From positions 6,995 through 70,994 of the IMG/VR virus record IMGVR_UViG_3300049002_000011: a stretch of 64,000 nucleotides of DNA. One strand, given 5' to 3'. The translations under genes were made by a program, and so were the position numbers. Positions 9,962 to 53,994 of this stretch are shown piece after piece. Below the pieces are notes generated by a model. The model saw only the letters and a program-made list of their open reading frames with translations. It ran no database searches and had not been told where the DNA came from. Numbering within the stretch: the stretch's first letter is position 1; every line of letters begins with the position of its first letter. This DNA is from a virus.

Positions 9962-10318
9962 TTAGCGTTTTGCGATGCGCTCGAACGCGCGCACCACGTT
10001 GGGTTTGACTGATTCGAAGGCGGGCATGAGAAACGGTTGCGCCGGGCTGTTTACGGTGCCGAACTCAACGTACGGCGCGTAAAACATCCCGACGACAACG
10101 CTTTTCGCTACTCCAAAACCCGGTCGGTGTCCGGAGTAGGTTTCGATCGCAATCGAGTCCCGCAAATTGCCGGTTTCACCAACCGGACAAAGCTGGCGAG
10201 CCAATGAGGCTATCTGCGTGGCTGCGTCGTCGAGGATTTTCTCGGCGCGCGGGCGCAGACTTCGACGCAGCTCGGGAATGCGGTTTCGCTTGGTGATTTT
10301 TACTCCAAGTGCAAACAT
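9962..10318 (-). CDS. HK97 gp10-like neck protein
   Basis: PVGETGNLRDSI...YAPYVEFGT...AQPFLMPAF signature. Confidence 0.9.
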   Translation of the reverse strand: MFALGVKITKRNRIPELRRSLRPRAEKILDDAATQIASLARQLCPVGETGNLRDSIAIETYSGHRPGFGVAKSVVVGMFYAPYVEFGTVNSPAQPFLMPAFESVKPNVVRAFERIAKR

Positions 10319-12091: not shown

Positions 12092-13240
12092 TTAGCCGAG
12101 GATGTGCGCGATGTTCTCGCTCTTGATCGCCTTCACGCCCCAGGCGAGGCGCACGTGGTAGACCACCTGCAAGTACTGACGATAGACCGCGATCTCGAAT
12201 GACAATCCGGAGACCGGATCTGTCACGGTGATCGTGTCGTCAGCAGTGTCGCCGCCTTTGGGCATCGCTGGCATACGCGCAACGAGCTGGATAGCGGAAC
12301 GGTGGAACGCGAGATTAGCGCGGAAGTTGTTGCCCACGGTCAGCGCCACGTTATCCGCCAGCGTTGCTCGCAGACCAGGTTTCGCGATCGTCACCACGCC
12401 ACCACTCAAGGCCGTCGCGACGGCGTACTTGTTCGTATCGCCCGCAAACGTGATCACGTCGCCAGCCAGGATGGTGCCCGTGCCGGTATCGAGCGCGATT
12501 GCCGTATCGCCAACCACGTAACCCGCGACGTTGTTCACCAGATAACCGGTGCCAGTACCTTTGGTGACCTGCGCGGCTTGTCCGGTGTTGCCGATCAAGA
12601 ATCCTTCGAGCTCACCGATGGTGCCGCGTCGCAGCAAATCTGCGGTGCCTGCCTCGTTGACTTTGAACAACGAAGCCTGCTTACCACGAATGTTCGCCAT
12701 TGCGCCCGAACCCAAGACGAGGTGCAGATCGGACTGAGGCGAGCCGTTGTCGTCGAGAATCTGACGCACGCCGGCGACATCCGACAAATCAGCCGCCGTC
12801 GCGAACGGAGTCGTGCCGGCCGTACCAAACGCGCGCGAAGCGCCCTTGTAAGCCTCGACATAGATATCCGATTCGATCTGGTTGGCGAGTGCTCGGAAAG
12901 CCTGCTCGAACTGCGATTGCAACGTGGTGTCGTACATGCCCGAGGACTCCATGCCACGAGTCTCTTCACCGTTCCAACGAATCGGAATGTGTTTCGACTT
13001 CGTGATTTTGATCTCGGTGTTGCCGACCGTCTGATCGCCAGTGTCCGGAGCGTTCACGCCAGGCGTGTTGTCCGCCATGGTGCCGGGTGTGGTGATGGGT
13101 ACCAGAATGGATTGATTGAGCGCTGCACGCTCAAGCGACATATTGCGCGTGACAGCAGGAATGAGTCCGACCAACTCGCGGGACACTTGGTCGAGCGCCG
13201 CGTATAGAGTCGGAATCAGTGAAGTGAGAGTGTTAGCCAA
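12092..13240 (-). CDS. major capsid protein (P22 coat/gp5-like)
   Basis: MANTLTSLIP start, ALANQIESD spine helix, insertion domain with GDVITFAG, NLAFHRSAIQLVAR and WGVKAIK C-terminus; TTG start with AAGGAG RBS. Confidence 0.9.
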   Translation of the reverse strand: MANTLTSLIPTLYAALDQVSRELVGLIPAVTRNMSLERAALNQSILVPITTPGTMADNTPGVNAPDTGDQTVGNTEIKITKSKHIPIRWNGEETRGMESSGMYDTTLQSQFEQAFRALANQIESDIYVEAYKGASRAFGTAGTTPFATAADLSDVAGVRQILDDNGSPQSDLHLVLGSGAMANIRGKQASLFKVNEAGTADLLRRGTIGELEGFLIGNTGQAAQVTKGTGTGYLVNNVAGYVVGDTAIALDTGTGTILAGDVITFAGDTNKYAVATALSGGVVTIAKPGLRATLADNVALTVGNNFRANLAFHRSAIQLVARMPAMPKGGDTADDTITVTDPVSGLSFEIAVYRQYLQVVYHVRLAWGVKAIKSENIAHILG

Positions 13241-13380: not shown

Positions 13381-14199
13381 TTAGTCGACGATCTTGCCGC
13401 CGCCGATCACGTGTGCTCTCTGTGCTTCCGGAGACAGGCCGTCAAAGGTCGAACGTTTCATCGTTACGCCCTTGCCCTGCGCCCCAGCCGTTTTCGATTG
13501 CTGTCCGGCGCCGCCACCGCCAACACCTTCGGCGGCAAAGAGACCACCAAAACCTTCTGTGTTCTTCAACTGCTCGACGAACTGCTCCACGTTCATCAGG
13601 TCGCTGCCAACGTAGAGCGGTGTGCGATTGTTTTTCACGTCGATCATCCGCGTCACAAACTGTCGCGCGTCGCCTTCGCCATCCTCAATCATCTCCATCG
13701 CTTCGATGACGTGCGGCAGCAACGCTTTCGCGCCGCCTTTGATGGGATTGGCTTTCTCTATCGCGATTTCTGCCGCGGTCGTCACCATGGATTTACGCAG
13801 TTGCGACATCAGGAACTCTTCGCGCTGCTTTGAAGTGTTTTTGACCGTGTCCAGCTCGCGCGTGTGTGATCCCTTCAACGTCTCGATCTCGCGCGTGCGT
13901 TTTTGCTCTTCCGTGAGTTTTGCGTCCTCGGCGGCTTGCTTCGCCTGCTGGAGTTCCGCGATCTGTTCAGCGGAAAGCCCGAGGTCCTGGAAAGCTTTGA
14001 GAGCGTTGGCCGCGGTCTGCTTTTCGGTTTTTAGCGCGTTGTTGTTTTGCGTGAGCGCTGCGCGTTCAGCTTTGAATAGCGGGTGCAGGTCGTAAGTTTC
14101 GGGCTGGCCGTTCTCGCCGCCCGTCTTCATGTAGATCTGGCGATCGTTCTCGCCTAATCCGTTGTACTCATCGAGAGTGAGTGTGTCTTTAACTGGCAT
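13381..14199 (-). CDS. capsid scaffolding protein
   Basis: Coiled-coil, GGGGAG linker, directly upstream of capsid; ATG at 14199 chosen after GGAG. Confidence 0.8.
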   Translation of the reverse strand: MPVKDTLTLDEYNGLGENDRQIYMKTGGENGQPETYDLHPLFKAERAALTQNNNALKTEKQTAANALKAFQDLGLSAEQIAELQQAKQAAEDAKLTEEQKRTREIETLKGSHTRELDTVKNTSKQREEFLMSQLRKSMVTTAAEIAIEKANPIKGGAKALLPHVIEAMEMIEDGEGDARQFVTRMIDVKNNRTPLYVGSDLMNVEQFVEQLKNTEGFGGLFAAEGVGGGGAGQQSKTAGAQGKGVTMKRSTFDGLSPEAQRAHVIGGGKIVD

Positions 14200-15756: not shown

Positions 15757-16356
15757 TTAGGAGAGCGTGAGCGGCGCTATTTCAGCGGGTTGCCCGGGAA
15801 CTGTCCAGCCCCAGAAAAACGGAGGACCACAGCACTTGTCATAATACGATGCGGCTCGCAAGGCGCGCTTCATCGTGGTCATGGCAGACTCGTTCATGTC
15901 CTGAGTCGCGTGGAGTGCTCCCAACGCCAACCGCGCGCCCGTACCGATCGACAGTAATCCATTGTCCGGTCGCGTGACCGTAAGGTCTGAATCGAATTCA
16001 AAAACGTAGCCGCGGACCGCTAAGAGGAATTCTGAGTCAGCTAGACCTTTTTGCATGTCAAACAAACCAGGAAACTTCCTGAGACAGATAAGCAGCTCCG
16101 GTACAAAGTCAGTGATCAGAAACGAATGTAAAAGCTCACCGCTGGTTTCGTACTTTTCAGGAATCGCGGGCGGCTTGAATGTCGAACGCAACGCCTGTTC
16201 ATAGCGAACAGCGCCGGCTGCGCCAAAGAGGTATTCACCGATCGTGAATAGCTTTCGGCCGGATTGCACCGTGTAATGATGCTCACCATAAGACACGCGC
16301 GCGTCGGCGCCGATGTAGGCGACGCCGCGATCCGTGAAACCAACTATGCAAGTCAT
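15757..16356 (-). CDS. Ntn-hydrolase (HslV/proteasome-beta-like) peptidase
   Basis: Starts MTCIVG...IGADARVS (N-terminal Thr nucleophile), SIGTGARLALGAL; GGAGG RBS before ATG 16356. Confidence 0.85.
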   Translation of the reverse strand: MTCIVGFTDRGVAYIGADARVSYGEHHYTVQSGRKLFTIGEYLFGAAGAVRYEQALRSTFKPPAIPEKYETSGELLHSFLITDFVPELLICLRKFPGLFDMQKGLADSEFLLAVRGYVFEFDSDLTVTRPDNGLLSIGTGARLALGALHATQDMNESAMTTMKRALRAASYYDKCCGPPFFWGWTVPGQPAEIAPLTLS

Positions 16357-16499
16357 TCGCTTTCCTCCGCGAGAACCATGTCCGCCAATTCCGGCGAAGC
16401 TTCTCGGAGCAGGTCGAGAGCTCGCCAGATATCGGAGGCTGTGATTTCGGCCGCGTCTTGAATTTCCTGACGCGTCCACCGTGGTGTGATTTCTGCCAT
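16353..16499 (-). CDS. 48-aa hypothetical protein
   Basis: MAEITPRWTRQEIQDAAEITASDI...; start overlaps portal stop and stop overlaps the peptidase start. Confidence 0.6.
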   Translation of the reverse strand: MAEITPRWTRQEIQDAAEITASDIWRALDLLREASPELADMVLAEESE

Positions 16500-17986
16500 T
16501 ACTGTTTGGGCGGGAGGTTGGTGTTCGGAGGTTCCTGTCGTGAGGGGTCATTTTCTGCTTCGCGCACGACGTCGGGCTTGTCGCAGTCGGGACCGAAGAT
16601 GCGCACCATCTCTGCATCGATGTCGAAGTCCGGACCAAGCTTGCCAGCTGTCTTCAACAACATGAGCAGCGTGTACGTGGACAGATGATGATCGTTGGCG
16701 AGGTTACGCAGCGTGTCGATATCCTGCGAGTCGAGGTGCAGCCGATCATATTGCACATTCAGCTCGATCGTGCCGAGCTCGTCTTTGCCGCGGTAATCAC
16801 CGTGGGCGATCAGGGCCAGCTTTAACGCGTTCGTCAGAGACTTCACCGCCAGCGACAATTCGGAATCGCTCTCAACGGTGTCTTTAATTTCTCCGGTGGC
16901 AGTGCGTGGACCACTGGTTTGTGGCACTAACAGTTTGAACCCGGCGACCGCCATGCGCTGCTCGAGCTGTTTGATTTCGTCCTGCGCCTTGCCGATCGCG
17001 TGCCCCTGGTGCTCGGCGTAACCGAGCTCCGAGTGCTCGCCTTTCAAATCGATAAGCACACTCGGGCCAACTGATTCGAATTTCTTTTTCTGATCGCGAT
17101 CGCGGGCCCAAAGGATCGGGACGTTCGCGACGTGAAGGATGCCGTGTAAGTCGCTGGTCATTTGCAAGTGCTGAACGACCATGAGTGCGAGGTCCAAGAG
17201 GGCTGGTTCAGAAACAAACGGATCCAGTTCTTCGCCGCCGTAAATCGGGAAGAGCGGTATGTACGGCAGACTCGAATTTGAACGTCCCTCGAGCTCGCAC
17301 GTGCCATCGGCTTTCTCGCGCCACATGGTGATCATGCCGGGCGTCAACACTCGATACCTGACTACGGTCTTTTCACCGAAATCACCATCTTCCTCCTGTT
17401 GGCACTCACGCAGCGAAACGCGTTTGAGGACCTGGTGGCCATAGACGTTCTCAAACTTCCAGTTAACGACCTGCGCTTTTTGGTAGAGAACCCAGTACGG
17501 CCGCAACTTCTGTTCATCCAGATAGGTTGGTTCGCTGGCATTCGTCTCTTCCGATTGAGTGAGGGTTTCTGTCACCGACTTCGGCATGTCGACGTAGATG
17601 AATGAATGTCCGTCTCGCAATGCGGTTTTGAGTGCTTCGCGAGCAAACAGACCAACCGACTTCCCTGCCAGATCGATGTTCTTTAGCTCTTGCTCGATCT
17701 GCTTATCGACGTCCTTCACTGTCGGGTCTTTATCAAACACGAGACCCAGGGCCAGCGTGATAGCGCGCTTCACGGCGGGCAGGGCCACCGACTTCTGCAC
17801 GCGCAGCTCATACTCGTCTTTCGGTTCCTGCGGGTTCTTCGGTAAGTACTCAACCTCGCAGTGGCGAAAACGCAACGTGCCGGCGTAAGCGTCCTGACAT
17901 ATCTTCATTGCCGGGAGCTGATCGATGTACGCCTTGATCCGGAAGTTTGGGAATTTTTTGTTTTGTTCTTTCGCGACGGTCGCCAT
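16499..17986 (-). CDS. portal protein (DUF4055-like)
   Basis: YLPKNPQEPKDEYELR, IDLAGKS...DGHSFIYVD, RPYW..Y....VVNW, RTAT motifs; follows terminase. Confidence 0.9.
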   Translation of the reverse strand: MATVAKEQNKKFPNFRIKAYIDQLPAMKICQDAYAGTLRFRHCEVEYLPKNPQEPKDEYELRVQKSVALPAVKRAITLALGLVFDKDPTVKDVDKQIEQELKNIDLAGKSVGLFAREALKTALRDGHSFIYVDMPKSVTETLTQSEETNASEPTYLDEQKLRPYWVLYQKAQVVNWKFENVYGHQVLKRVSLRECQQEEDGDFGEKTVVRYRVLTPGMITMWREKADGTCELEGRSNSSLPYIPLFPIYGGEELDPFVSEPALLDLALMVVQHLQMTSDLHGILHVANVPILWARDRDQKKKFESVGPSVLIDLKGEHSELGYAEHQGHAIGKAQDEIKQLEQRMAVAGFKLLVPQTSGPRTATGEIKDTVESDSELSLAVKSLTNALKLALIAHGDYRGKDELGTIELNVQYDRLHLDSQDIDTLRNLANDHHLSTYTLLMLLKTAGKLGPDFDIDAEMVRIFGPDCDKPDVVREAENDPSRQEPPNTNLPPKQ

Positions 17987-18036: not shown

Positions 18037-19449
18037 TTAGCGGCGGAGGATGACACGGGCGTAATCGTATTCGGGCGCCAGATCTACACTGGCCACGCGG
18101 TAACGCATCGCATCGCAACCGTGATCGTTTTCTTTAACGGGCTTGCCGTCTTTACCGTAAACGTAGCCCCAGATTTCCTGGTGCGTGGACGTGGGCTTTT
18201 TCTTTTTTTCCATCTCCTCATCAACTTTCACCGTCGCATCACGGCGAATGAACAAGCGCGGACGTCCATCGAGTTGCAGTTTCAAACGAGCGCGAACCAT
18301 GTCGCAGCCGGCATCACGTTCTTTAGTCGCTGCCTGCGTTTGCAGATTCTGAAAGCGCCAGTTCTTGCCGAGGTGTCTTTCGAGGGTGGCGCGATCCTCT
18401 GCATCGTGGTCGACGTAAACCTCGTCGAAGCCGGGCTCGTCGAACTCTTCGCATAAGCGAATAATTTCGGCGGCGTGATCTTCAACAATCACGCCCGACA
18501 TGTAGATCTCGCGATACATGTAAAGGCGTCCGTCTTCGTCTGCGGCCCAGAACTGACAGACGAACGGGTTTGAGTGTCCGAAGTCGACCGACAGGGATCG
18601 CGCCCAGCTTTTCGGCGGCTCGGTCTTGTACTCTTCGACTCGCGACCGATACGAGCTCGAGTCGTCTTTGTGCAGTGAACCGTCATCATTCCAGCCGTAA
18701 AAGAAATGAATGTCTTCACGGAACCCGTCGAACACGAGACCATCGGCCGAACACCAAATGCCGTCACGCAGCCGTAATCGCTTTGTGCCGGTGAGGCTTT
18801 CCAGTGCGCCGAGTACATACTCAACACCGGCGGGCGTCCATTCCTGCTTTTCCTGATCGAATAGCTTTGGATTGTCCGTGTGTTGGGCAAAGATCATTTT
18901 CAACAGCTTTGCGTCGGCTCGCTTCTTCAAAAAATGAATCGGCGCGTCCGGATTGCACGCGAGCAGTAACTGATGAAAAGTGGTTTTGCCGTTACGAAGG
19001 CGAGTGATGAGGTCCTGGAAATCGTCTTCGGTGATTTCTGTCCCTTCGTCGACTACGATCAAGTCATATTCGGCTGACATGACCTTCGCCGATTTATCGA
19101 GTCCACCAATCACGCACACCGACCCATTCGGGTAGCGGTATTCCATGTCAGTGTTGTGGAAGTAGACGAACTGCCGCGACGGTTTCTCGGCGAACCTGCC
19201 GGCAAGTACCTGGCGTTCAAAGATCACAATCGAGGACTGAGTGAGAGATGAGCGCGTTTTACGTAGCAGCAACGTGCGCGCGCTGGGGAAGTAGCGATTA
19301 ACCGCGTCGAGCTTCTCCAGACACCCGCGCGTTTTTCCCGTTCCCGCTGGGCCAGAAAACACAAGGGCCAGATCGCGGTTGTCCATCATCTCGCGCACCT
19401 TGCCGTACGCGGTGTAATCAGCCTGCTTCTGGGTTGTCTTCCTGGACAC
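18037..19449 (-). CDS. terminase large subunit (PBSX-type)
   Basis: Walker A GPAGTGKT, Walker B IVVDEG, coupling motif ACNP, nuclease DFGHSNP and DHGCDAMRY. Confidence 0.95.
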   Translation of the reverse strand: MSRKTTQKQADYTAYGKVREMMDNRDLALVFSGPAGTGKTRGCLEKLDAVNRYFPSARTLLLRKTRSSLTQSSIVIFERQVLAGRFAEKPSRQFVYFHNTDMEYRYPNGSVCVIGGLDKSAKVMSAEYDLIVVDEGTEITEDDFQDLITRLRNGKTTFHQLLLACNPDAPIHFLKKRADAKLLKMIFAQHTDNPKLFDQEKQEWTPAGVEYVLGALESLTGTKRLRLRDGIWCSADGLVFDGFREDIHFFYGWNDDGSLHKDDSSSYRSRVEEYKTEPPKSWARSLSVDFGHSNPFVCQFWAADEDGRLYMYREIYMSGVIVEDHAAEIIRLCEEFDEPGFDEVYVDHDAEDRATLERHLGKNWRFQNLQTQAATKERDAGCDMVRARLKLQLDGRPRLFIRRDATVKVDEEMEKKKKPTSTHQEIWGYVYGKDGKPVKENDHGCDAMRYRVASVDLAPEYDYARVILRR

Positions 19450-27480: not shown

Positions 27481-27880
27481 TTTGTCCCTCGATCTGTCGA
27501 ATTTTCTGTGCCGTTTGCTCCGAGACGCGTTTGTCTTCACTCACCTGCTGCCGACTTTGCTGGACACCGGCATCGTTGACGTCGCGACGAACGGCCGCGT
27601 CGTTTGCATTGTCGCCATGCCGCGCCGCGTCCTGCAGGTTCTTGTTCGCGTTGCTCTCGATCTGGTTTACGGTCTGGGTAGTGTTGGCTGTGGCTCGATT
27701 CGTGCGCCACCGCTGTACGAAGTAGATCGACACGACAAGCGCGACGAATAGGACCACAGCCAACAAGATTTTGCCGCGTCGGTTGAGATGACACAGGCCG
27801 TCCCAGATCACTTGGAAAACTGTGCGTTGGTTGTTTATGTCTGGTGGCAGCAAAACTAAACCTCTCGGGCCTTGGTCCAT
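27380..27880 (-). CDS. inner-membrane spanin-like protein
   Basis: Single TM (ILLAVVLFVALVVSIYFV) followed by periplasmic coiled coil; directly after endolysin. Confidence 0.55.
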   Translation of the reverse strand: MDQGPRGLVLLPPDINNQRTVFQVIWDGLCHLNRRGKILLAVVLFVALVVSIYFVQRWRTNRATANTTQTVNQIESNANKNLQDAARHGDNANDAAVRRDVNDAGVQQSRQQVSEDKRVSEQTAQKIRQIEGQNEKTRSAGPDTRTISDDDLCARLAKLDPPVPCR

Positions 27881-28995
27881 TAGTCGGTAAGGAAATCGAC
27901 GGCGTGACGCGCAGCCCACTTTATCCAGTCGAGGATTTGCTTGTGATAAAGCACGACGGCAACAACCAGCACGAGCACTCCCAGAATTGTTCCAGAGATC
28001 GCGAGCGCGCTGCCGCCCTTTAATGCGGTGATGAGCAGAAGGATGGGACGCCATAACGCGGCAGCACCCCTTACACTCGCCACCTTTGCGGATTGTTTGA
28101 CGGACTCTTTTCGCAGCAATTTCTTGAAGTCGATGTCCGAACCCGCTCCTGGATCTGTGGTCGCCGGCGTTTGCGCTGGTTGCGCGTCGACCGACGTGGA
28201 CGTCGTGACACCCGCGGATATGGGACTCGACGCGTCCTGAACGGAATCCTGCGCGGGAATCGATGTTTTAGTGCGATTGTCAACAGGTTCGTCTACCGAT
28301 TTGTTGACAGGTTTGACGACCTCAACGGAGCCACGTGACGGAATTGCGCGGAGCGTGTTTTCGTAACGTGTCACACGATCGTCGAGTCCATTCAAACCAC
28401 CGTTGACGCCTTTGGTGAGCGCCTTCAAAACTTCAAACTCACGCGAATCTGATACGCCTCGTAGCTTATCCGCCACAGGATTCAATTGCTTTTCGTAAGT
28501 CCAGAACCACGCGGCCGCGCGGAATCCGTTCTCAGGCAGTTCGAGCAGCTCCGGATGTTCCTCGAGGGGAAGATTCAGCGCTAAACCCACTTTGCGATAC
28601 ATGTCTCGGCCGGTGATGCCGATCGGGCCTCGCGCAATGAACTTCCAACCGTCGCCAGGCATGAAGTTGCCGAGGTCTGAACGGTTGCCGTAGACGTGGT
28701 TTGCTAACGCGACGGGGTTGTGAGCGAGCTGGTTGGCGAGAGCGTCCGTCGGCACACGTTTCTTGAAGACCTTGCGAATTTGCTTCGCCGAGTAGTTCAT
28801 GTTCTCGCGCCAGTGAGTCAGGTCCATCGACTCGTGGCCGAGATGTGGGAGGTAAGCGCAAACGCGGATGCGCGTGTTAATGAAAGACTCGTCGAGCGAC
28901 GCTTGAATGAGGTCCAGCCAGGCGCGCGCTTTCGCGTCTGACAGACCTGGCATTGCGTTGCGCAACTGCGCGAGGGTGAGCTTAAAGGATTTCAT
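27880..28995 (-). CDS. endolysin, glycoside hydrolase family 19, with C-terminal hydrophobic helices
   Basis: HLGHES...RENMNYS, GDGWKFIARGPIGITGR..Y, AAAWFW, VNGGLNGLDDR. Confidence 0.9.
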   Translation of the reverse strand: MKSFKLTLAQLRNAMPGLSDAKARAWLDLIQASLDESFINTRIRVCAYLPHLGHESMDLTHWRENMNYSAKQIRKVFKKRVPTDALANQLAHNPVALANHVYGNRSDLGNFMPGDGWKFIARGPIGITGRDMYRKVGLALNLPLEEHPELLELPENGFRAAAWFWTYEKQLNPVADKLRGVSDSREFEVLKALTKGVNGGLNGLDDRVTRYENTLRAIPSRGSVEVVKPVNKSVDEPVDNRTKTSIPAQDSVQDASSPISAGVTTSTSVDAQPAQTPATTDPGAGSDIDFKKLLRKESVKQSAKVASVRGAAALWRPILLLITALKGGSALAISGTILGVLVLVVAVVLYHKQILDWIKWAARHAVDFLTD

Positions 28996-29186
28996 GCGGT
29001 GCTTCCCGGCAGGAGATCGATCGCTATCGGCGAGCACCAGCACCACTCATTTGAGTGGGGGCGCGTATCGGACGCTGTGACCTTGTGAATCACTTTCACC
29101 TTTTGAAACCATGCAAACGTCCGGCGACCGCCAGTCAATCGATTGATCAACGTGCGGTCGCGCAGACGATTAAGAAATTGAATCAT
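28992..29186 (-). CDS. small hypothetical protein
   Basis: 64 aa, H...CWCSP motif, stop overlaps endolysin start. Confidence 0.5.
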   Translation of the reverse strand: MIQFLNRLRDRTLINRLTGGRRTFAWFQKVKVIHKVTASDTRPHSNEWCWCSPIAIDLLPGSTA

Positions 29187-29509
29187 GGTGAATGAAAATG
29201 AATGAAAGTGAATAAGAAGCCGGTCACGCGCACAGCTCGAGTTCGACTGTTTGGTTGGCGTCGAGAGTGCCCCTGGACGGAGCGGCGGGAACCTCGTTCA
29301 CAGACTTTCGCCTGCTACAAAGTGTTTGGTGGTAAACGAGTGTGCGCGTGAATCTCAAAATCGAAAAGTTAATTGGAGAGCAAAAGAAAAAGCGCTGACT
29401 CCGGAAAGCGAATGATCCGGAATTTGCGCCTCGGTAGGTTCGGCCGCAACGTTTACGGCCCTACACGGCAAACATACCAACAAACAGCGTTGACACGCAA
29501 GAGATATCA

Positions 29510-29560
29510 CAAAACAAAGAGAACGGGCTCGGTCCGCTGTCCAAAGCAACCGAGCCCGTT
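29510..29560 (-). terminator. intrinsic terminator in late leader
   Basis: 12-bp perfect stem AACGGGCTCGGT/ACCGAGCCCGTT followed on minus strand by CUCUUUGUUUU. Confidence 0.7.
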
Positions 29561-29669
29561 TCTCAGACACCCCCAAGTTTTTCGCCCTGAGATATCTGTT
29601 GAGCATGTCCTCACCCCACGCACAACACTCAGAAACTTGGGAGGTTTTTTACTCCCACATGTGCGGCGC

Positions 29670-29697
29670 AGTATAGCACAATCGTTGCGCGGTGCAA
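29670..29697 (-). promoter_or_regulatory. putative sigma70-type late promoter
   Basis: TTGCAC-N16-TATACT with TG extended -10, upstream of lysis and virion genes. Confidence 0.6.
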
Positions 29698-29703
29698 GGG
29701 TTT

Positions 29704-30015
29704 CTACATCGTCAATTCTTCATCGCGCGAGTTTTCGAAAAACTCTTCGTCTTCGGTCGCTGTTTGCTCATCGAGCACTTTCGCAATCGCGGCCAAGCTA
29801 GCTGGGCGTGCAGCGTTCGACGCTTTGGTGAAAAGCTGGTGAATCACGCTCATCGGCTGTGCTAACAGCTCGGCTGGCAAAATCTCCGTCGTTGACCGTG
29901 ATGCGATAAATCCGAGCATCGAAGTAAGACCGGAGAGTCCCGGCTCACTGACCGTCAGAAAGAGTGAGTACTCGATCCCAGTCATTTCATCGCTGCGAAA
30001 CTCTACTTCGTTCAT
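29704..30015 (-). CDS. hypothetical protein
   Basis: 103 aa co-oriented ORF. Confidence 0.5.
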   Translation of the reverse strand: MNEVEFRSDEMTGIEYSLFLTVSEPGLSGLTSMLGFIASRSTTEILPAELLAQPMSVIHQLFTKASNAARPASLAAIAKVLDEQTATEDEEFFENSRDEELTM

Positions 30016-30263
30016 GGCTCACTCGCTTTCTCCGTTAGGGCTTTGCTCTTAATCCTGGCAAGCAGGAAGCACAACAATCGCGTGTGTTGGCGAATGCAGA
30101 CGTGTAGCTGCGCGACAGTATCGTGATTACGGCGCCACGGTTCTCTCTTGTAAGCGGCGTTCAATCGCGACATTTGCCAACGTCGTCGACGACAGTTTGC
30201 TTTCATCGCATCAACCTCCGTTCGCGATAGTGACAGTCGTGCTGACACAGCTTTGCGGAGCAA
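30012..30263 (-). CDS. basic hypothetical protein
   Basis: 83 aa co-oriented ORF, ATGA overlap with downstream gene. Confidence 0.4.
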   Translation of the reverse strand: MLRKAVSARLSLSRTEVDAMKANCRRRRWQMSRLNAAYKREPWRRNHDTVAQLHVCIRQHTRLLCFLLARIKSKALTEKASEP

Positions 30264-30342: not shown

Positions 30343-32121
30343 TCATGGTTCCTTTCTCTGAAGACGAATACGGCGCCGTTTCTTTGGGCCATCGTCTGGT
30401 GCTGGAGTGATAGGCGTGGAGGAAGTCTGGGGCGGGCTGTCGAGACGGGCGGCGCTGACGAGGGCATCAAGTCGCGCTATCTCGAGCTGGACTTTTGCTG
30501 CGCGTGCGAAATTCTCTGAGCTCATGCTACCGAGGGCGGCGCCGCGTGACAGTTCAATGAACTCTGCGCGTAATCTCGCGAGCTGCTCGATGTTCGATTC
30601 TTGCGGCGTTGGCGGCGCGAGTATTTGCCGTTCGATATCACGAGCCATTTTGTCGAAAGTCGCTTTCGACGCCTTAACGATCAGATCATCGAGTACGCCT
30701 TTCTTTAGAGTGGCGGCGCGTGAGTTGATTCGTATTTCACTCTCGGGCAAGTTGTCGACGATTTTGTTTCCCGTCGTGGCAAACTTCATTCGGTCAGCGA
30801 GGCTCAACGCGTCAAACTCTGCGCGCGTGATCGTCACGGACTCATAGCCACGTTTTCCATTTTCGATGGTAATGGCCCGTTCGATCTTTTGAAGCATCGA
30901 CGCCATGTCTTGTTCCATGGTTATTCGTTGCCGGCATTCAAAATCGTTCGTCTGCGGGCGACACGAGGCGAGCATTCCCTCGGGAGTCTCGGTAAGAACC
31001 AGCGACCAATCCGCGTGGCGTTTCCGGAACGCTGCGATTGCGAGGCGCGAAACGGATGGCAGTGTTTGTTCGAACGCGCGATCGAGGATTTCAGCAGTTT
31101 TGCCACCTCCTGAACCGCCGCCACGAAGCAGGCCCTTCACATAATCGATCGCGTTGTCTCTCAAACTGCTTTTTACATCAGGTTGGAGCATCGATTGTGG
31201 CGGGGTCGCGGGCGTCCCGAATTCCGTGAAGGTGGCATAATCAGCTTTGCCATACACCTTCGGATTCAGCGGAGGTGTGAGCTTCGGAGATGCCCCGGTC
31301 AAACGCCTGCTTATTTCCTTCTTCAACACTTCCTCCAGTTGGTCCAGCAATAGTGGCAAGGCTTGAGGCGTTTCGAAACTGCCGCTGGCACAATAGCGAC
31401 CGAGGTCTGCGCCATTCTCATTGACGATCGACACCGTGACTTCAACTTTTGTGAGGTTGTATTGCTGGAAAAATGACACCTTCCAATCAGGATGTTTCTC
31501 CATGAACGCTTCGATAACAGCAGTCACGCCGGTGGCTTCCGTTGACTCGACACTTTTCCGGTAGTAATCGATCGTCATGCGATACTCTTTGCTTACGAGG
31601 ATGCGCTCAACCTCGCTGCTGCCGAAGGTTGTCATATCTCGATATTCGGCATTCACCTTCCATTGATCAGCGCGCAGTTTTCCATCGTCCAGGGCAGCCC
31701 TCAGTCTCGCTTCAATGTCGAGTAGAAGCGTTTCCGTTTGGCTCTCAGGCGCTCGCCCCTCGACGATGAATGTCCCGCGCTTATTCCCAGCTCGCACCTC
31801 AACGCTGACGGTATTCTCGCGACGACCTGTGGCTGACAATTCGCAGTTGCACACCCACTCCGGATGTCGGTCGATGAACTGACTGAAAGCGTCGTTTGCG
31901 CTCACGACTGATTTGAAGTTTAGGGATTGCGGCATTTCGTTGTCTCCGGTTTCGCGTTTTAGGAATTGGACCTCGCCGAAGTGAAATTTGTGTCTGAGCA
32001 CAAATGGCGGGGGCGCGAATCCGTCTTTCAGTGGCGGACTGTATTCGTTACATGATGAACACCACGCAAAGAATTCAACCCTTAGTGGTTTTTGCGGTCT
32101 GCTGTCATTTGCTCCGTCCAT
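30343..32121 (-). CDS. mosaic hypothetical protein with three internal repeats and morphogenesis-protein-like segments
   Basis: Repeats FIDRHPEW/FMEKHPDW/FRKRHADW; segment VTITRAEFDALSLADRMKFATTGNKIVD resembles the scaffold C-terminus. Confidence 0.7.
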   Translation of the reverse strand: MDGANDSRPQKPLRVEFFAWCSSCNEYSPPLKDGFAPPPFVLRHKFHFGEVQFLKRETGDNEMPQSLNFKSVVSANDAFSQFIDRHPEWVCNCELSATGRRENTVSVEVRAGNKRGTFIVEGRAPESQTETLLLDIEARLRAALDDGKLRADQWKVNAEYRDMTTFGSSEVERILVSKEYRMTIDYYRKSVESTEATGVTAVIEAFMEKHPDWKVSFFQQYNLTKVEVTVSIVNENGADLGRYCASGSFETPQALPLLLDQLEEVLKKEISRRLTGASPKLTPPLNPKVYGKADYATFTEFGTPATPPQSMLQPDVKSSLRDNAIDYVKGLLRGGGSGGGKTAEILDRAFEQTLPSVSRLAIAAFRKRHADWSLVLTETPEGMLASCRPQTNDFECRQRITMEQDMASMLQKIERAITIENGKRGYESVTITRAEFDALSLADRMKFATTGNKIVDNLPESEIRINSRAATLKKGVLDDLIVKASKATFDKMARDIERQILAPPTPQESNIEQLARLRAEFIELSRGAALGSMSSENFARAAKVQLEIARLDALVSAARLDSPPQTSSTPITPAPDDGPKKRRRIRLQRKEP

Positions 32122-32693
32122 GCTGGATCCGCCTTACTCATGTGGACGATACCACTCGACATCAATTTACCGTCCACTTGTGCCAGGCAAGTAAAACATG
32201 TGCGCCAGTTCTGTGCTTCGAAGGGATCGTCGGTGACATGGAGTGGCACGATACAAAGCCCATTGCAGGCAGGACAGATGCGACCGACAGCACTCAGCGT
32301 GAGGATCCGAGTGCCTACCTTGCGCACCACGCGCGCGGAGATCTCGGCGTGATGGTTCACGACGGCGACTTGGACCGTCAAATTAAACTCTTTGTTCTGG
32401 AAGACTGGCCATTCCAGCGTGACAAAATCTTCCACTTCCTCTTCACACAGAAGGTCAGAGTCAATCAGTACACGCGCGACGCCTTCGATCGCTTCGTACA
32501 TCGCGGGGATGAGTGGCGTTAGCGAGGGGCGCTTTGGCTTGTTGGTCGCTTCAACTGACGGCTGCATGTGGTCCTCGTAGAATGAGCGCGCAATATGATC
32601 GAGCATTTGCTGGTCCGCGTAAGATCGGCACGCGACGAGCGCTTTGAGTTGCGTTTCAATTATAGGCAGCCAGTCGATCAGCATCGTCTTCAC
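32082..32693 (-). CDS. hypothetical zinc-ribbon protein
   Basis: CPACNG...CFTC. Confidence 0.55.
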   Translation of the reverse strand: MKTMLIDWLPIIETQLKALVACRSYADQQMLDHIARSFYEDHMQPSVEATNKPKRPSLTPLIPAMYEAIEGVARVLIDSDLLCEEEVEDFVTLEWPVFQNKEFNLTVQVAVVNHHAEISARVVRKVGTRILTLSAVGRICPACNGLCIVPLHVTDDPFEAQNWRTCFTCLAQVDGKLMSSGIVHMSKADPAWTEQMTADRKNH

Positions 32694-33796
32694 CCGTGCA
32701 GTGTTGTCGCGACAAACCCGGGCCTATGAACTTGCGGAACGTCGCCACCGTCTTTCATGGCGAACAACTCCGCGAGCGTAGATTGCTTCGTGTTGGAGTT
32801 CGGATACAACAGCGCTTGCGATCGGGCGTCGTGCTCGTCAAGCCATTTGTAAGCTTCATCGCGTCCGAATTTTGAGAACTCGATTTGCGAGAAGCAACGA
32901 CCAGGACGTGAGACTGCTTCGTGAAGTGCACCAACATCTTCGTTGGTTGTAATTAACACTAACACACGCAAGCCCTGTCCGAGCAAGCCCGATGTAAGAT
33001 TGAGAAAGCGCGAAAGACGTCCGCCCGTTTGCAGACGCGCATCCTTCGCGAGCAGCTCGCCGGAATCCTCGAGCACGACCAGTCGATACCTCTTTTTTTG
33101 CTCACCGGTAGTTGGTCCACCATCATCACCGAGAATCACGCGCAGCAAATAATCGCCGTGGTCGAAGAAGTTGTCAGCGTCGATCACAATATGCAGACGA
33201 CACCACGGGCCCCACACGTCGCCGAGCGCACGCAGCGCGTATGTTTTGCCAGTGCCCGGCTCGCCACGCCACAGCATCAACTTGCCGCTGTCTTCGGTTG
33301 GCCTCATTCCGTGCAACCTCACCAGTTGATCACGCGTGGCCGCCGGATAGTTGGCCGCGATTTGTTCCCACGTCGGCACTTGCAGTTGTCGATCGAGAGT
33401 GCGTACACCGTGCTCTGTGTAGTGCCAGTAAGTGACGTCGAGCAATCCCGATTTCCGCTCTGACCATGGCAACGCCTTTCGAAAGACGTCCAAAACATCA
33501 GTTGCGCTTTGCATACTCGAGTTGTAGACGGTGCACGTAAATTCACGATTTTCTCGGATGAGTGAAACGATCGCGCGGCCCTGCTGAAGCACAAGCGAGT
33601 GCGAATCAGCGCGCGGGTAAAATTCTTCGCATAATAGCTTTGTGCCGTCGATCTTCAGCGCGGTTTGTATGGTTTCGTCGGACACCCACGCGTCACGGAC
33701 CGAAGAGACGGCGCCGCGCTCGTGGGCTTCGTTCAGCGCGGTAAAAGTAACGCGATCGTGAATGTTCAGGTTGGCAACGGATCGAATGCTGGTCAT
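32690..33796 (-). CDS. AAA ATPase (DUF5925-like N-terminus)
   Basis: PTWEQIAANY, GEPGTGKT, VVLEDSGE, LSRFLNLTSGLLGQG, ITTN, SRPGRC. Confidence 0.85.
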   Translation of the reverse strand: MTSIRSVANLNIHDRVTFTALNEAHERGAVSSVRDAWVSDETIQTALKIDGTKLLCEEFYPRADSHSLVLQQGRAIVSLIRENREFTCTVYNSSMQSATDVLDVFRKALPWSERKSGLLDVTYWHYTEHGVRTLDRQLQVPTWEQIAANYPAATRDQLVRLHGMRPTEDSGKLMLWRGEPGTGKTYALRALGDVWGPWCRLHIVIDADNFFDHGDYLLRVILGDDGGPTTGEQKKRYRLVVLEDSGELLAKDARLQTGGRLSRFLNLTSGLLGQGLRVLVLITTNEDVGALHEAVSRPGRCFSQIEFSKFGRDEAYKWLDEHDARSQALLYPNSNTKQSTLAELFAMKDGGDVPQVHRPGFVATTLHG

Positions 33797-40826: not shown

Positions 40827-41342
40827 TCATTTCGCGAAGAACACGACCGTGTCGTCTCGCTTTTCCATCTTGACCGCGCCCACGCTGGCGGCGATCTTCG
40901 CGAGACGCAGTTCGTATTTGGCATCGAGCGCGGTGGCGCGCAGAGGTTTCGCTGACGTGTGTTTGTTAATCTTCGCGACTAATTCCTGCGTCGATTCACG
41001 CGCCATTACTCTCTCTTTCCACGTAGCGCCATCTTTCGAGGCGCGTGCCGCGCGAGCCTTTGTGCCTTTGGCGGTGGACGGTTTTGATTGTGGGACCTTC
41101 GCCTCCGGAACGCGCACGGCGAAGATCGGCGGATCGAATTTTGTGCTGCCGATCGCGTAGACGGATTTCACTACCGCGCCTTCAGGAACGCTGGTGGGTC
41201 GCTCTGCGTAGTAGGTCTTTCCGTGCATCGTAGGGTTATCGAGGTTGTTTATTCTCTGTCCAAAGGTGATGCCGAGCTTTTTGGCTTTCGCGGCGTTGTC
41301 ATTGCCAGTCGCTTTGCTTTTTTTGGTCGTCTTTTTAGCCAT
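40827..41342 (-). CDS. Lys-rich hypothetical protein
   Basis: 171 aa; RBS GGAGAACAAAACG; flanked by a promoter-like site and a terminator. Confidence 0.65.
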   Translation of the reverse strand: MAKKTTKKSKATGNDNAAKAKKLGITFGQRINNLDNPTMHGKTYYAERPTSVPEGAVVKSVYAIGSTKFDPPIFAVRVPEAKVPQSKPSTAKGTKARAARASKDGATWKERVMARESTQELVAKINKHTSAKPLRATALDAKYELRLAKIAASVGAVKMEKRDDTVVFFAK

Positions 41343-41944
41343 CGTTTTGTTCTCCGTCGATAATTGGAATTTGTTAAAGCAGGCATACTATTGCACCGCG
41401 CAACGGAAAAGCCAACTCCTTTTTTAGCATTTTCTGCCACGCGGTTTAACTGTCTTTTGCTGAGTGACGCGCGATTGCGCGTGCTCTGCGTTCCTCCGCG
41501 TTTTGGTCGCAGTCCGCGTAAATCCATGCCCGGATCGATCTGGTGCGTTCCTACGTCTATTCCTAATCGCCGCGCGTGTGTTTCAAGACGTGCGACGACC
41601 TCACGCAGCTCGACATCTGAGAATTTCCGATGACCGCGCCACCTCAGTTCCAGTTGGTGGTAAGCAAAGTCGCCCCACTTCGTTTTGAACCATTCACGAT
41701 AGGGCTTTTTGTTGTACGTGTGGCGCTCATTACAGGGCCAGCATTGGCGGTAACAATTGCCGCCACGCTGCACGTCCCATCGTGTTGAATGGTTCGTTCG
41801 ACCGAATAGGTGTCCACACGTTGGTTGCGCGACTGAGCCACACGTCACGCACGCGTGGTCCAGTACGATGACGATCGTGGACGTCAACTCATCCGCTCGA
41901 ATCACAAGCAGATCGCGTTCCGTTCGACGTGCTTGGTGTCTCAT
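41249..41944 (-). CDS. NinG/Rap-like HNH endonuclease
   Basis: CVTCG...CGHLFGR...STRWD...NCYRQCWPCN. Confidence 0.8.
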   Translation of the reverse strand: MRHQARRTERDLLVIRADELTSTIVIVLDHACVTCGSVAQPTCGHLFGRTNHSTRWDVQRGGNCYRQCWPCNERHTYNKKPYREWFKTKWGDFAYHQLELRWRGHRKFSDVELREVVARLETHARRLGIDVGTHQIDPGMDLRGLRPKRGGTQSTRNRASLSKRQLNRVAENAKKGVGFSVARCNSMPALTNSNYRRRTKRWLKRRPKKAKRLAMTTPRKPKSSASPLDRE

Positions 41945-53229: not shown

Positions 53230-53994
53230 CTATCCGGATTTTTTGGTTGCTTGTTTCAGCATCTCCCGGACCTCGTCTGCCGAAGCCCGATCTGATTCTG
53301 CGGGCGCCTTTAATTCTTGGCGTTGTTGGAAACGCGCTTGTTCAGAGCGCATCTTGGCGGCAAAGTACTCACGAATGTCTTCGTCCCAATCTCCGTTTTT
53401 GGATTTGAAGATCCACCCCTTGCCGAGTTTGGGAGTTTGAGCACTTGCGTATTCAACTCTTTGCTCCCTGGAAAACTCGGAGAGACACACACGCTCTGTT
53501 GTTTGTATGTGTGTGTGTGTGTTTTTAAAACTAATATTAGGACTCGCGCTTCCGGAGTTAAATTTCTTAACTGCGGCATGGTTTAAATTTTTTACTTCGA
53601 GTGCAGTTAAATTCTTTGACTCCGAATCGTGCAGGTCCTGAACGTTGAGCGGCAATGCGCGCTGTTTTTCGGGCTCTGTTTTGGAGGGAAGGACTCTGAG
53701 GTTCTGAGTCTTCAGTAAGCGGTAGCGGTAGGCCTCACGTGACGCGCCGCGGCGTCTCCCGATACACCCGCGACCCACCAAATTATCGAGCGCGGTTATC
53801 ACTGTCGGACGCGTCATGCCGGTCAGTTCCATCCACTCCTCGATTTTCAATTGGACTTCTTCACGCTGCCAGCCAGCGGTTTGATCAATCAGTGCAACTA
53901 CGCATTTGGTTTCGGCTCCACCTAGGACGGGAAGCCAAGTACGGGCAAAGACATCGGGCATCTTTGAAAACCCGTTGTCTCTCATGCACGACAC
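53230..53994 (-). CDS. replication initiator (lambda O-like winged HTH)
   Basis: GFSKMPD...QTAGWQ...MELTGMTRPTVITALDNLVGRG; internal AT-rich iterons. Confidence 0.75.
   Translation of the reverse strand: MSCMRDNGFSKMPDVFARTWLPVLGGAETKCVVALIDQTAGWQREEVQLKIEEWMELTGMTRPTVITALDNLVGRGCIGRRRGASREAYRYRLLKTQNLRVLPSKTEPEKQRALPLNVQDLHDSESKNLTALEVKNLNHAAVKKFNSGSASPNISFKNTHTHIQTTERVCLSEFSREQRVEYASAQTPKLGKGWIFKSKNGDWDEDIREYFAAKMRSEQARFQQRQELKAPAESDRASADEVREMLKQATKKSG
53505..53621. repeat. putative replication origin: three iterons plus AT-rich tract inside the initiator gene
   Basis: GTTAAATTTCTTAACT, GTTTAAATTTTTTACT, GTTAAATTCTTTGACT at ~24-25 bp spacing next to TTTTTAAAACTAATATTAG. Confidence 0.6.

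Follow-up and report, generated by a model that had tools for sequence, protein, structure and literature searches.

An early-region phage protein with an internal scaffold-tail module predicted to dock on the coat N-arm

In phages lambda (C/Nu3) and P2 (gpO), a second protein, the protease, shares the C-terminus of the scaffold through nested or fused reading frames. Short tags, namely the capsid targeting sequence of T4 and the cargo-loading peptides of encapsulins, load unrelated proteins into HK97-fold shells; the T4 tag is N-terminal and cleaved, the encapsulin tag is C-terminal, and their sequences differ and do not derive from scaffold tails. The last residues of the 80alpha scaffold are described as a helix-and-hook that lies on the N-arm of the coat protein, and CpmB of SaPI1 as a bearer of the same C-terminal motif (PMC5644958). 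For P22, the scaffold hook is reported to bind residues D14, E15 and E18 of the N-arm (PMC12005531), and cargo to be encapsulated in vivo when it is joined to the C-terminal portion of the scaffold (PMC9962691). Here we analyze a 64-kb stretch of DNA, hereafter the window, taken from the 70,994-base IMG/VR virus record IMGVR_UViG_3300049002_000011, in which a module of scaffold-tail type lies inside a second, much larger protein. This protein, P0001, is read from an open reading frame (ORF) at 30343-32121 on the minus strand, whose longest form had been taken in the original prediction as an accessory protein of 592 amino acids, stitched with look-alikes of head-assembly proteins. The ORF is genuine, with 592 codons plus stop, and residue numbers below follow this form; the probable coding sequence is 30343-31935, i.e., 530 amino acids from a start at M63. 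A single homologue, P0005, was found.

The claim of a scaffold look-alike was based on an ungapped match of 29 residues, encoded at 30754-30840, to the last 29 residues of the scaffold of the same phage. Both the coordinates and the 12 identities are correct. Taken by itself, however, this pairwise match is not significant: it scores 24.6 bits, the E-value in a comparison with the remaining 104 window ORFs is 0.34, and shuffling P0001 gives at least this score in 62 of 300 trials. Profiles make the match decisive at the level of sequence. The scaffold gene (13381-14199, minus strand; 272 amino acids from an ATG at 14199) is assigned through PHROG 206 (E = 1.3e-23), and its tail is encoded at 13384-13479. 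The nearest relatives of this scaffold, P0007 and P0008 (55% and 52% identity), keep the tail; the scaffolds of PaMx74 and PaMx11, also of PHROG 206, have different ends. A pattern scan of viral contigs for further scaffold relatives returned none, and the protein collection held only three. With a profile of the three nearest tails, P0001 scores 13.1 bits and P0005 11.4 bits, far above all other ORFs, and none of 200 shuffled proteomes reaches the full-sequence score of either protein.

A much larger set of tails was obtained from the neighborhood of the coat gene, relatives of which occur in at least 591 stretches of IMG/VR. Of 80 related loci that were retrieved, 74 have, immediately before the coat gene, an ORF that closes with a Gly-rich linker and then the tail; of the remaining six, five have no such upstream ORF and one has an upstream ORF without the motif, which was dropped. 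The consensus of the tail is KTmtRAaFdaLdPaaqaafvkdGgtivD, and one to three extra residues follow the final D in 13 of the 54 distinct tails. A hidden Markov model (HMM) was built from these 54 tails, all from other phages and none from the window, and was searched with Z=106. It matches residues 430-456 of P0001 with 35.4 bits (E = 4.2e-11), a higher score than that of the phage's own scaffold (34.0 bits, 30.2 of them for the tail domain). P0005 scores 18.9 bits, and the next ORF of the window has an E-value of 0.33. When 2,551 real ORFs of related loci serve as background, every one of the 77 matches that reach 17 bits is C-terminal, ending within 10 residues of the end of the protein, and the best internal match scores 6.2 bits. 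The module so delimited in P0001, TITRAEFDALSLADRMKFATTGNKIVD, is encoded at 30754-30834 (minus strand); it is internal, is kept in P0005, and contains the predicted coat contacts described below.

A six-frame search of the genome with the tail profile recovers exactly two copies, in P0001 (40.8 bits) and in the scaffold (34.8 bits). As judged by sequence, no gene of this genome other than those of the scaffold and P0001 carries a copy. The same search in 15 related records of 41-87 kb returned one copy each, that of the scaffold, behind a loose first filter with which a very divergent copy could be missed. No other stretch is as well conserved between P0001 and P0005 as the module, which has 11 identities over 26 positions. 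The two copies have drifted apart, yet both keep the consensus R, F, D, L, G and D together with the hydrophobic positions; that the consensus was kept while the copies diverged suggests long-term selection for the same partner. The possibility that the module arose by recent duplication from the scaffold tail of this phage was considered and rejected: the P0001 copy shares 11 of 27 residues with that tail, which ranks 20th among 57 tails, the best of them sharing 16 of 27. From these comparisons we conclude that the P0001 module genuinely belongs to the scaffold-tail family and is an ancient, conserved part of the protein.

P0001 is not itself a head scaffolding protein: it does not match PHROG 206, and its gene lies 17 kb from the capsid gene rather than directly upstream of it. 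The module differs in placement from the scaffold tails, which sit at the extreme C-terminus after a Gly-rich linker: it is internal and preceded by ENGKRGYES. Nor could the other parts of P0001 be placed in a described family. Pfam finds nothing above noise, either in the whole protein or in seven pieces of it, and the sole match among the PHROGs is PHROG 5, with an E-value of 0.022. No match was obtained by tblastn against 50,697 phage records, nothing but P0001 was returned by a word-based search of 5.8 billion proteins, and a search of the ESM Atlas gave no usable match. A phmmer search of 1.84 billion representatives found P0001 itself and one relative, P0005, a protein of 397 amino acids that is 30% identical to P0001 (E = 4.5e-4). 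P0005 comes from a Logan contig of 6.9 kb, and scans of viral, metagenome and genome contigs for its context found nothing. Its layout comprises one domain with an HPDW motif, a linker with LEYQTYAEFG, the scaffold-like module, a charged helical stretch, a Pro/Ser-rich linker and an end with RRRIRL. The features common to the two sequences define the core of the family. The scaffold-tail module is among them and therefore is not an insert; the idea of a protein stitched together from several look-alikes is not supported, the module being conserved in P0005 and an ancient part of the family.

The candidate partner of the module is the major capsid protein, which is encoded at 12092-13240 (minus strand) and belongs to the P22-coat family (PF11651, E = 1.9e-13; PHROG 283, E = 1.6e-106). 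Codons 1-17 (13190-13240) encode the N-arm, which is the predicted docking site and is nearly invariant across 39 relatives. The capsid call in the protein collection, P0011, has 349 amino acids and a coverage of 91%, and would drop the predicted scaffold-docking helix; read from a TTG start the coat has 382 residues, and relatives of 60-84% identity can be aligned to its whole length, N-arm included.

Modeling of a complex with the coat, a check proposed in the original prediction, was carried out with the coat sequence (39-row alignment) and residues 418-470 of P0001 (45-row alignment, mostly of scaffold tails). The module was placed on the N-arm with ipSAE interface scores of 0.69, 0.70 and 0.68, compared with 0.01 for the best of three controls; the partner has a predicted local distance difference test score (pLDDT) of at least 71, and at least 97% of the contacts recur between runs. 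The ipSAE mark is reached by 58 of 80 solved complexes and by 2 of 110 mismatched pairs, counts that are only roughly valid here because the alignments were self-supplied. In the predicted interface, residues 4, 6-7, 9-10, 12-14, 16-17, 340-342 and 345 of the coat meet R433, F436, S440-A442, R444, M445, A448, T449 and G451-D456 of the module, and these module residues are the family-conserved positions. According to this model, the module would dock on the N-arm helix of the coat, i.e., on the site used by the scaffold tails of P22 and 80alpha.

The scaffold tail shows no sequence likeness to the hook of P22 gp8 (score -3.8). In the Protein Data Bank (PDB), the best match of the tail profile is the villin headpiece subdomain HP35 (4cz4_A, E = 0.0026; also 3trw_A), with the common pattern mtRsaF.nLp..kQ...k..g, and this sequence likeness suggests that the tail is a compact two-helix subdomain. 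AlphaFold2 (AF2) models the module as strand, helix, helix, strand. We take the resemblance to villin as an analogy of fold only, given the E-value of 0.0026, the lack of a VHP match when the fragment is searched with Pfam, and the lack of a functional link; a literature search found no paper connecting scaffold tails and the villin headpiece.

Beside the scaffold match, the original prediction had listed three further look-alikes, none of which survives. The supposed echo of the capsid spine helix has 6 identities over 24 positions and is silent in BLASTP; a match of 7 of 24 or better occurs at some place in each of 200 shuffles, and the residues are not kept in P0005. Mimicry of the capsid helix was therefore rejected, and the echo is ascribed to chance. 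The supposed terminase-style P-loop is a literal Walker-A pattern, GxxxxGKT, in the Gly-rich linker LLRGGGSGGGKT (31096-31131, minus strand), which is modeled with low pLDDT between two predicted helices. Pfam finds no ATPase family in P0001, the linker is absent from P0005 and looks unlike the ATPase-type P-loops of the window, and a pattern of this kind arises in 751 of 20,000 shuffles. With a helix-linker-helix rather than a strand-loop-helix arrangement, lack of conservation and such frequency in shuffles, the P-loop reading was discarded. Lastly, the motif that opens the scaffold, said to be related to its tail, scores 0.0 bits with the tail profile, and no N-terminal match better than an independent E-value of 0.2 was found in 74 scaffolds. 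This motif is conserved among close relatives (P0007 and P0008), yet it is unrelated to the tail by profile, and the proposed relation was dropped. The functional proposal built on these look-alikes thus divides: a capsid-loading tag is supported by membership in the tail family and by the coat model, whereas a decoy of several epitopes is not.

One resemblance had been overlooked. The linker at residues 280-319 (31165-31284, minus strand), which contains ADYATFTEFG, resembles the Neck1/HK97-gp10-type protein of this phage, encoded at 9962-10318 (minus strand), whose signature YAPYVEFGT it echoes. BLASTP between the two gives 26.6 bits (E = 0.041), and an HMM of seven Neck1 homologues gives P0001 14.8 bits, a score reached by 1 of 200 shuffled proteomes. 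P0005 scores 2.7-4.5 bits, the hhalign probability is 24.7% over 29 columns, and only the second of the Neck1 signatures TG.L..SI and YA.YvEFGT is matched (PHROG 5, E = 0.022). The sequence resemblance is borderline. Homology of the whole HPDW unit to Neck1 was rejected by hhalign.

The three repeats of an F..xHP(D/E)W domain, also reported in the original prediction, are genuine, although the third reads HADW. Compared with the single domain of P0005, they give BLASTP E-values of 9e-6, 1e-3 and 0.045. Domain 1 (residues 67-145; 31687-31923, minus strand) is the repeat with the value of 1e-3 and has an alpha-beta-beta-beta-alpha secondary structure in AF2. It is followed by AEYRDMTTFG (residues 158-167; 31621-31650, minus strand), an instance of the motif [DE]Y..[MFY].[TE]FG, the core of the Neck1-type echo, which follows domain 1, domain 2 and the P0005 domain. 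Domain 2 (residues 194-274; 31300-31542, minus strand), the closest to P0005 (E = 9e-6), has an AF2 model with a pLDDT of 74.6 and the order H-E-E-E-H. The HADW variant, domain 3 (residues 356-417; 30871-31056, minus strand), is the most divergent (E = 0.045) and is poorly modeled. Foldseek searches with the domain model against the PDB and BFVD returned nothing at E <= 0.001, with best TM-scores in the PDB of about 0.5. The weak neighbors are ribosome hibernation factors, T7 Gp1.2 and double-stranded RNA-binding domains, from which we draw no function; that is, with no significant structural match, the repeats are not assigned to double-stranded RNA-binding domains or to an HPF-YfiA-like fold. 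The PDB was also searched by sequence, with the protein family and with the repeat alignment as queries, and nothing was returned. AF2 gave a poor model of the whole protein (pLDDT 45.8), the Foldseek matches of which were not used as evidence.

C-terminal to the module, residues 474-560 (30442-30702, minus strand) form a helical region with three predicted long helices and an AF2 pLDDT of up to 72; the P0005 stretch aligned to it contains many charged residues. The protein ends in a disordered Pro/Ser/Thr linker and a basic tail, KKRRRIRLQRKEP (30346-30441, minus strand; the tail itself at 30346-30384). RRRIRL, within KKRRRIRLQRKEP, is invariant between P0001 and P0005 and is the sole basic-hydrophobic run of its kind among the 105 ORFs of the window; candidate partners for it are DNA, the coat and an ATPase.

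The product of the gene is probably the 530-residue form rather than the 592-residue one. A GGAG precedes the ATG at 31935 by 7 nucleotides, the protein collection lists the 530-residue version starting at M63 as its gene call, and the alignment to P0005 begins at the point equivalent to M63; these three observations favor this start. The 592-residue version is present on an NCBI record, and it would overlap the upstream gene by 40 nucleotides.

The genome has a lambdoid layout. A leftward operon starts with an O-like replication initiator (53230-53994) and contains, between this gene and that of P0001, a ParB-like gene, NinG/Rap (41249-41944) and an AAA ATPase with DUF5925 (32690-33796). In this ATPase, just upstream of the P0001 gene, DUF5925 is N-terminal (PF19347, E = 5e-7). 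Between the ATPase gene and the P0001 gene is a Cys-rich ORF of 203 amino acids, with CxxC...CxxC motifs and no family match. The ATPase gene, this ORF (together 32082-33796, minus strand) and the P0001 gene abut or overlap and may constitute one functional unit. The P0001 gene closes the series of large genes in the delayed-early, nin-like region and is not a gene of the head module.

Downstream of it are two small ORFs, a promoter-like site with an extended -10 element, and a strong hairpin with a T-run (29522-29566). A non-coding stretch at 29190-29700 (minus strand) separates the early region from the lysis genes and recalls the pR'-tR' late control region of lambda. The promoter-like site, at about 29665-29697, consists of TTGCAC, a spacing of 16 nucleotides and TGC-TATACT; the consensus scanner did not call it because its -35 element matches 3 of 6 bases. 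The GC-rich hairpin with its T-run lies some 100 nucleotides downstream of the extended -10 site, and small Arg-rich ORFs just upstream (30012-30263 and 29704-30015) are candidate antiterminators. Beyond the hairpin is the endolysin gene (27880-29046). A candidate large terminase gene, identified only by a GPAGTGKT P-loop and adjacency to the portal gene, is at 18037-19449, followed in order by genes for the portal, an HslV-family peptidase, the scaffold, the coat and the tail. The peptidase gene (15757-16638, minus strand; PHROG 1040, E = 3e-20), between those of the portal and the scaffold, encodes an unusual candidate prohead protease. Genes for RecT and an exonuclease occupy a rightward arm. 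Scanning the window for Rfam families and tRNAs gave no match.

What, then, does the module do in P0001? We consider it somewhat more probable than otherwise that P0001 is a delayed-early accessory protein of about 530 residues that docks on the coat via its scaffold-type module and acts as cargo or as a modulator of assembly. Docking would recruit the protein to the inner face of assembling procapsids, alongside the scaffold or in competition with it, and the recruited protein would then be carried as internal cargo, which we slightly favor, or would modulate assembly. Since fusions to the C-terminal part of the P22 scaffold are reported to be encapsulated in vivo (PMC9962691), such loading is physically plausible. 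Several points weigh against this interpretation. The gene falls within the delayed-early, nin-like region; 17 kb separate it from the head genes, and it precedes the putative late promoter and terminator, whereas known internal and ejection proteins are usually encoded in late operons; the module is internal in both P0001 and P0005, with about 130 residues after it, and this, together with the early-operon position, weighs against simple cargo. None of the 15 related records has a second copy, and a protein of this kind is therefore not a general need of the capsid type. Because the partner alignment consisted mostly of scaffold tails, the success of the complex model favors the module family as much as the P0001 copy. 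In addition, that the scaffold tail of this lineage binds the coat is itself argued by analogy, i.e., from its position, the coat family and precedent. A bolder version of docking, which we regard as speculative, is that the tail serves as a portable, natural head-loading tag on an early-made effector, which would be pre-loaded into procapsids and delivered with the DNA into the next cell. The docking site, the coat N-arm, hardly varies among hundreds of related phages, and P0001 could thus also gain entry to the heads of competitors among them, or poison these; with the borderline Neck1-type signature added, it may be a dedicated mimic of several of the contact peptides of head assembly.

The early-operon position counts in favor of a different account, in which P0001 is not cargo but an assembly modulator or competitor that would be made before the late genes and compete with the scaffold for N-arms, so as to tune, like an auxiliary scaffold, the timing or nucleation of assembly or the size of the head, or to poison co-infecting relatives. 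This appears rather unlikely, albeit with several further observations in its favor: the near invariance of the N-arm across relatives, a module with a better score against the family consensus than the tail of the scaffold itself (35.4 versus 30.2 domain bits), a record of at least 71 kb as compared with 43-67 kb for related complete records, and the precedent of CpmB, a competing protein with the same tail (PMC5644958). Against it stands a 67-kb relative without a second copy; nothing indicates oligomerization, and the three additional folded domains, the HPDW repeats, have no obvious role in a pure competitor and weigh against one. The internal position and the early-region gene could also fit an autonomous helical subdomain that binds a partner other than the coat (the portal, the protease or a host factor) or serves in folding only, with no role at the shell; the resemblance of the tail profile to the villin headpiece subdomain (4cz4_A, E = 0.0026) and the report that the P22 scaffold hook also touches the portal (PMC12005531) point the same way. 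We hold this to be improbable, in that the controlled complex model puts the conserved residues on the N-arm and the tail strictly co-occurs with this capsid family. Far less credible is the decoy of the original prediction, in which imitations of scaffold, capsid and terminase would soak up sensors of the Avs or CapRel type. One of its look-alikes, the scaffold tail, is real, and another, the Neck1-type signature, is borderline, but the capsid and terminase echoes are due to chance and are absent from P0005; Pfam and PHROGs, with PADLOC not searched, point to no defense or anti-defense family, and nothing links P0001 to sensing of either type. We also know of no sensor of scaffold tails, which counts against the decoy as well. 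Chance resemblance in an unrelated orphan protein, finally, would be in keeping with the pairwise match alone (E = 0.34; 62 of 300 shuffles), but is negligible in view of the profile E-value of 4.2e-11, the score of the homologue, and the maximum of 6.2 bits in the real-ORF background.

These results define a conserved tail, putatively coat-binding by analogy, for the scaffolds of a very large lineage of P22-type capsids, and provide a natural case of such a tail within an unrelated protein of several domains, the gene of which is distant from those of the head. Literature searches found no description of such a protein or of the tail motif. If the docking is true, P0001 would be a natural counterpart of the engineered cargo fused to the P22 scaffold and of the satellite protein CpmB; it would offer a tag, simple to test, with which proteins could be loaded into capsids of this family, and would suggest that there is a class of accessory proteins of the head that has yet to be studied.

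Among the described systems, SaPI1 CpmB and 80alpha come closest: as described in PMC5644958, a protein otherwise unrelated to the scaffold carries its C-terminal coat-binding element and contacts the N-arm inside the procapsid. CpmB, however, is a satellite-encoded dimer of 72 residues with the RIIK helix-and-hook at its extreme C-terminus, and it redirects capsid size, whereas P0001 has about 530 residues, is encoded by the phage in its early region, and carries an internal module of unrelated sequence. Encoded in the early operon of the phage itself, with 530 residues and an internal module, P0001 is thus not an alternative scaffold of the CpmB type. P22 shares with this phage the coat family PF11651, and its scaffold tail is reported to bind the coat N-arm, the contact that is predicted here; its hook has no sequence likeness to the tail described here, and the fusions reported are man-made and carry the tail C-terminally. 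In the herpesvirus pair UL26/UL26.5, the protease shares the capsid-binding C-terminus of the scaffold and is thereby built into the procapsid (PMC12005531). There the frames are nested or fused within the head module, while P0001 has a gene of its own at a distance of 17 kb, and its copy has diverged independently. Taken together, the principle is known from CpmB/80alpha, UL26/UL26.5, the T4 targeting sequences and engineered P22 cargo, and the form is new, i.e., the architecture, the gene position, the internal module and the protein family itself, with two members in 1.84 billion representatives.

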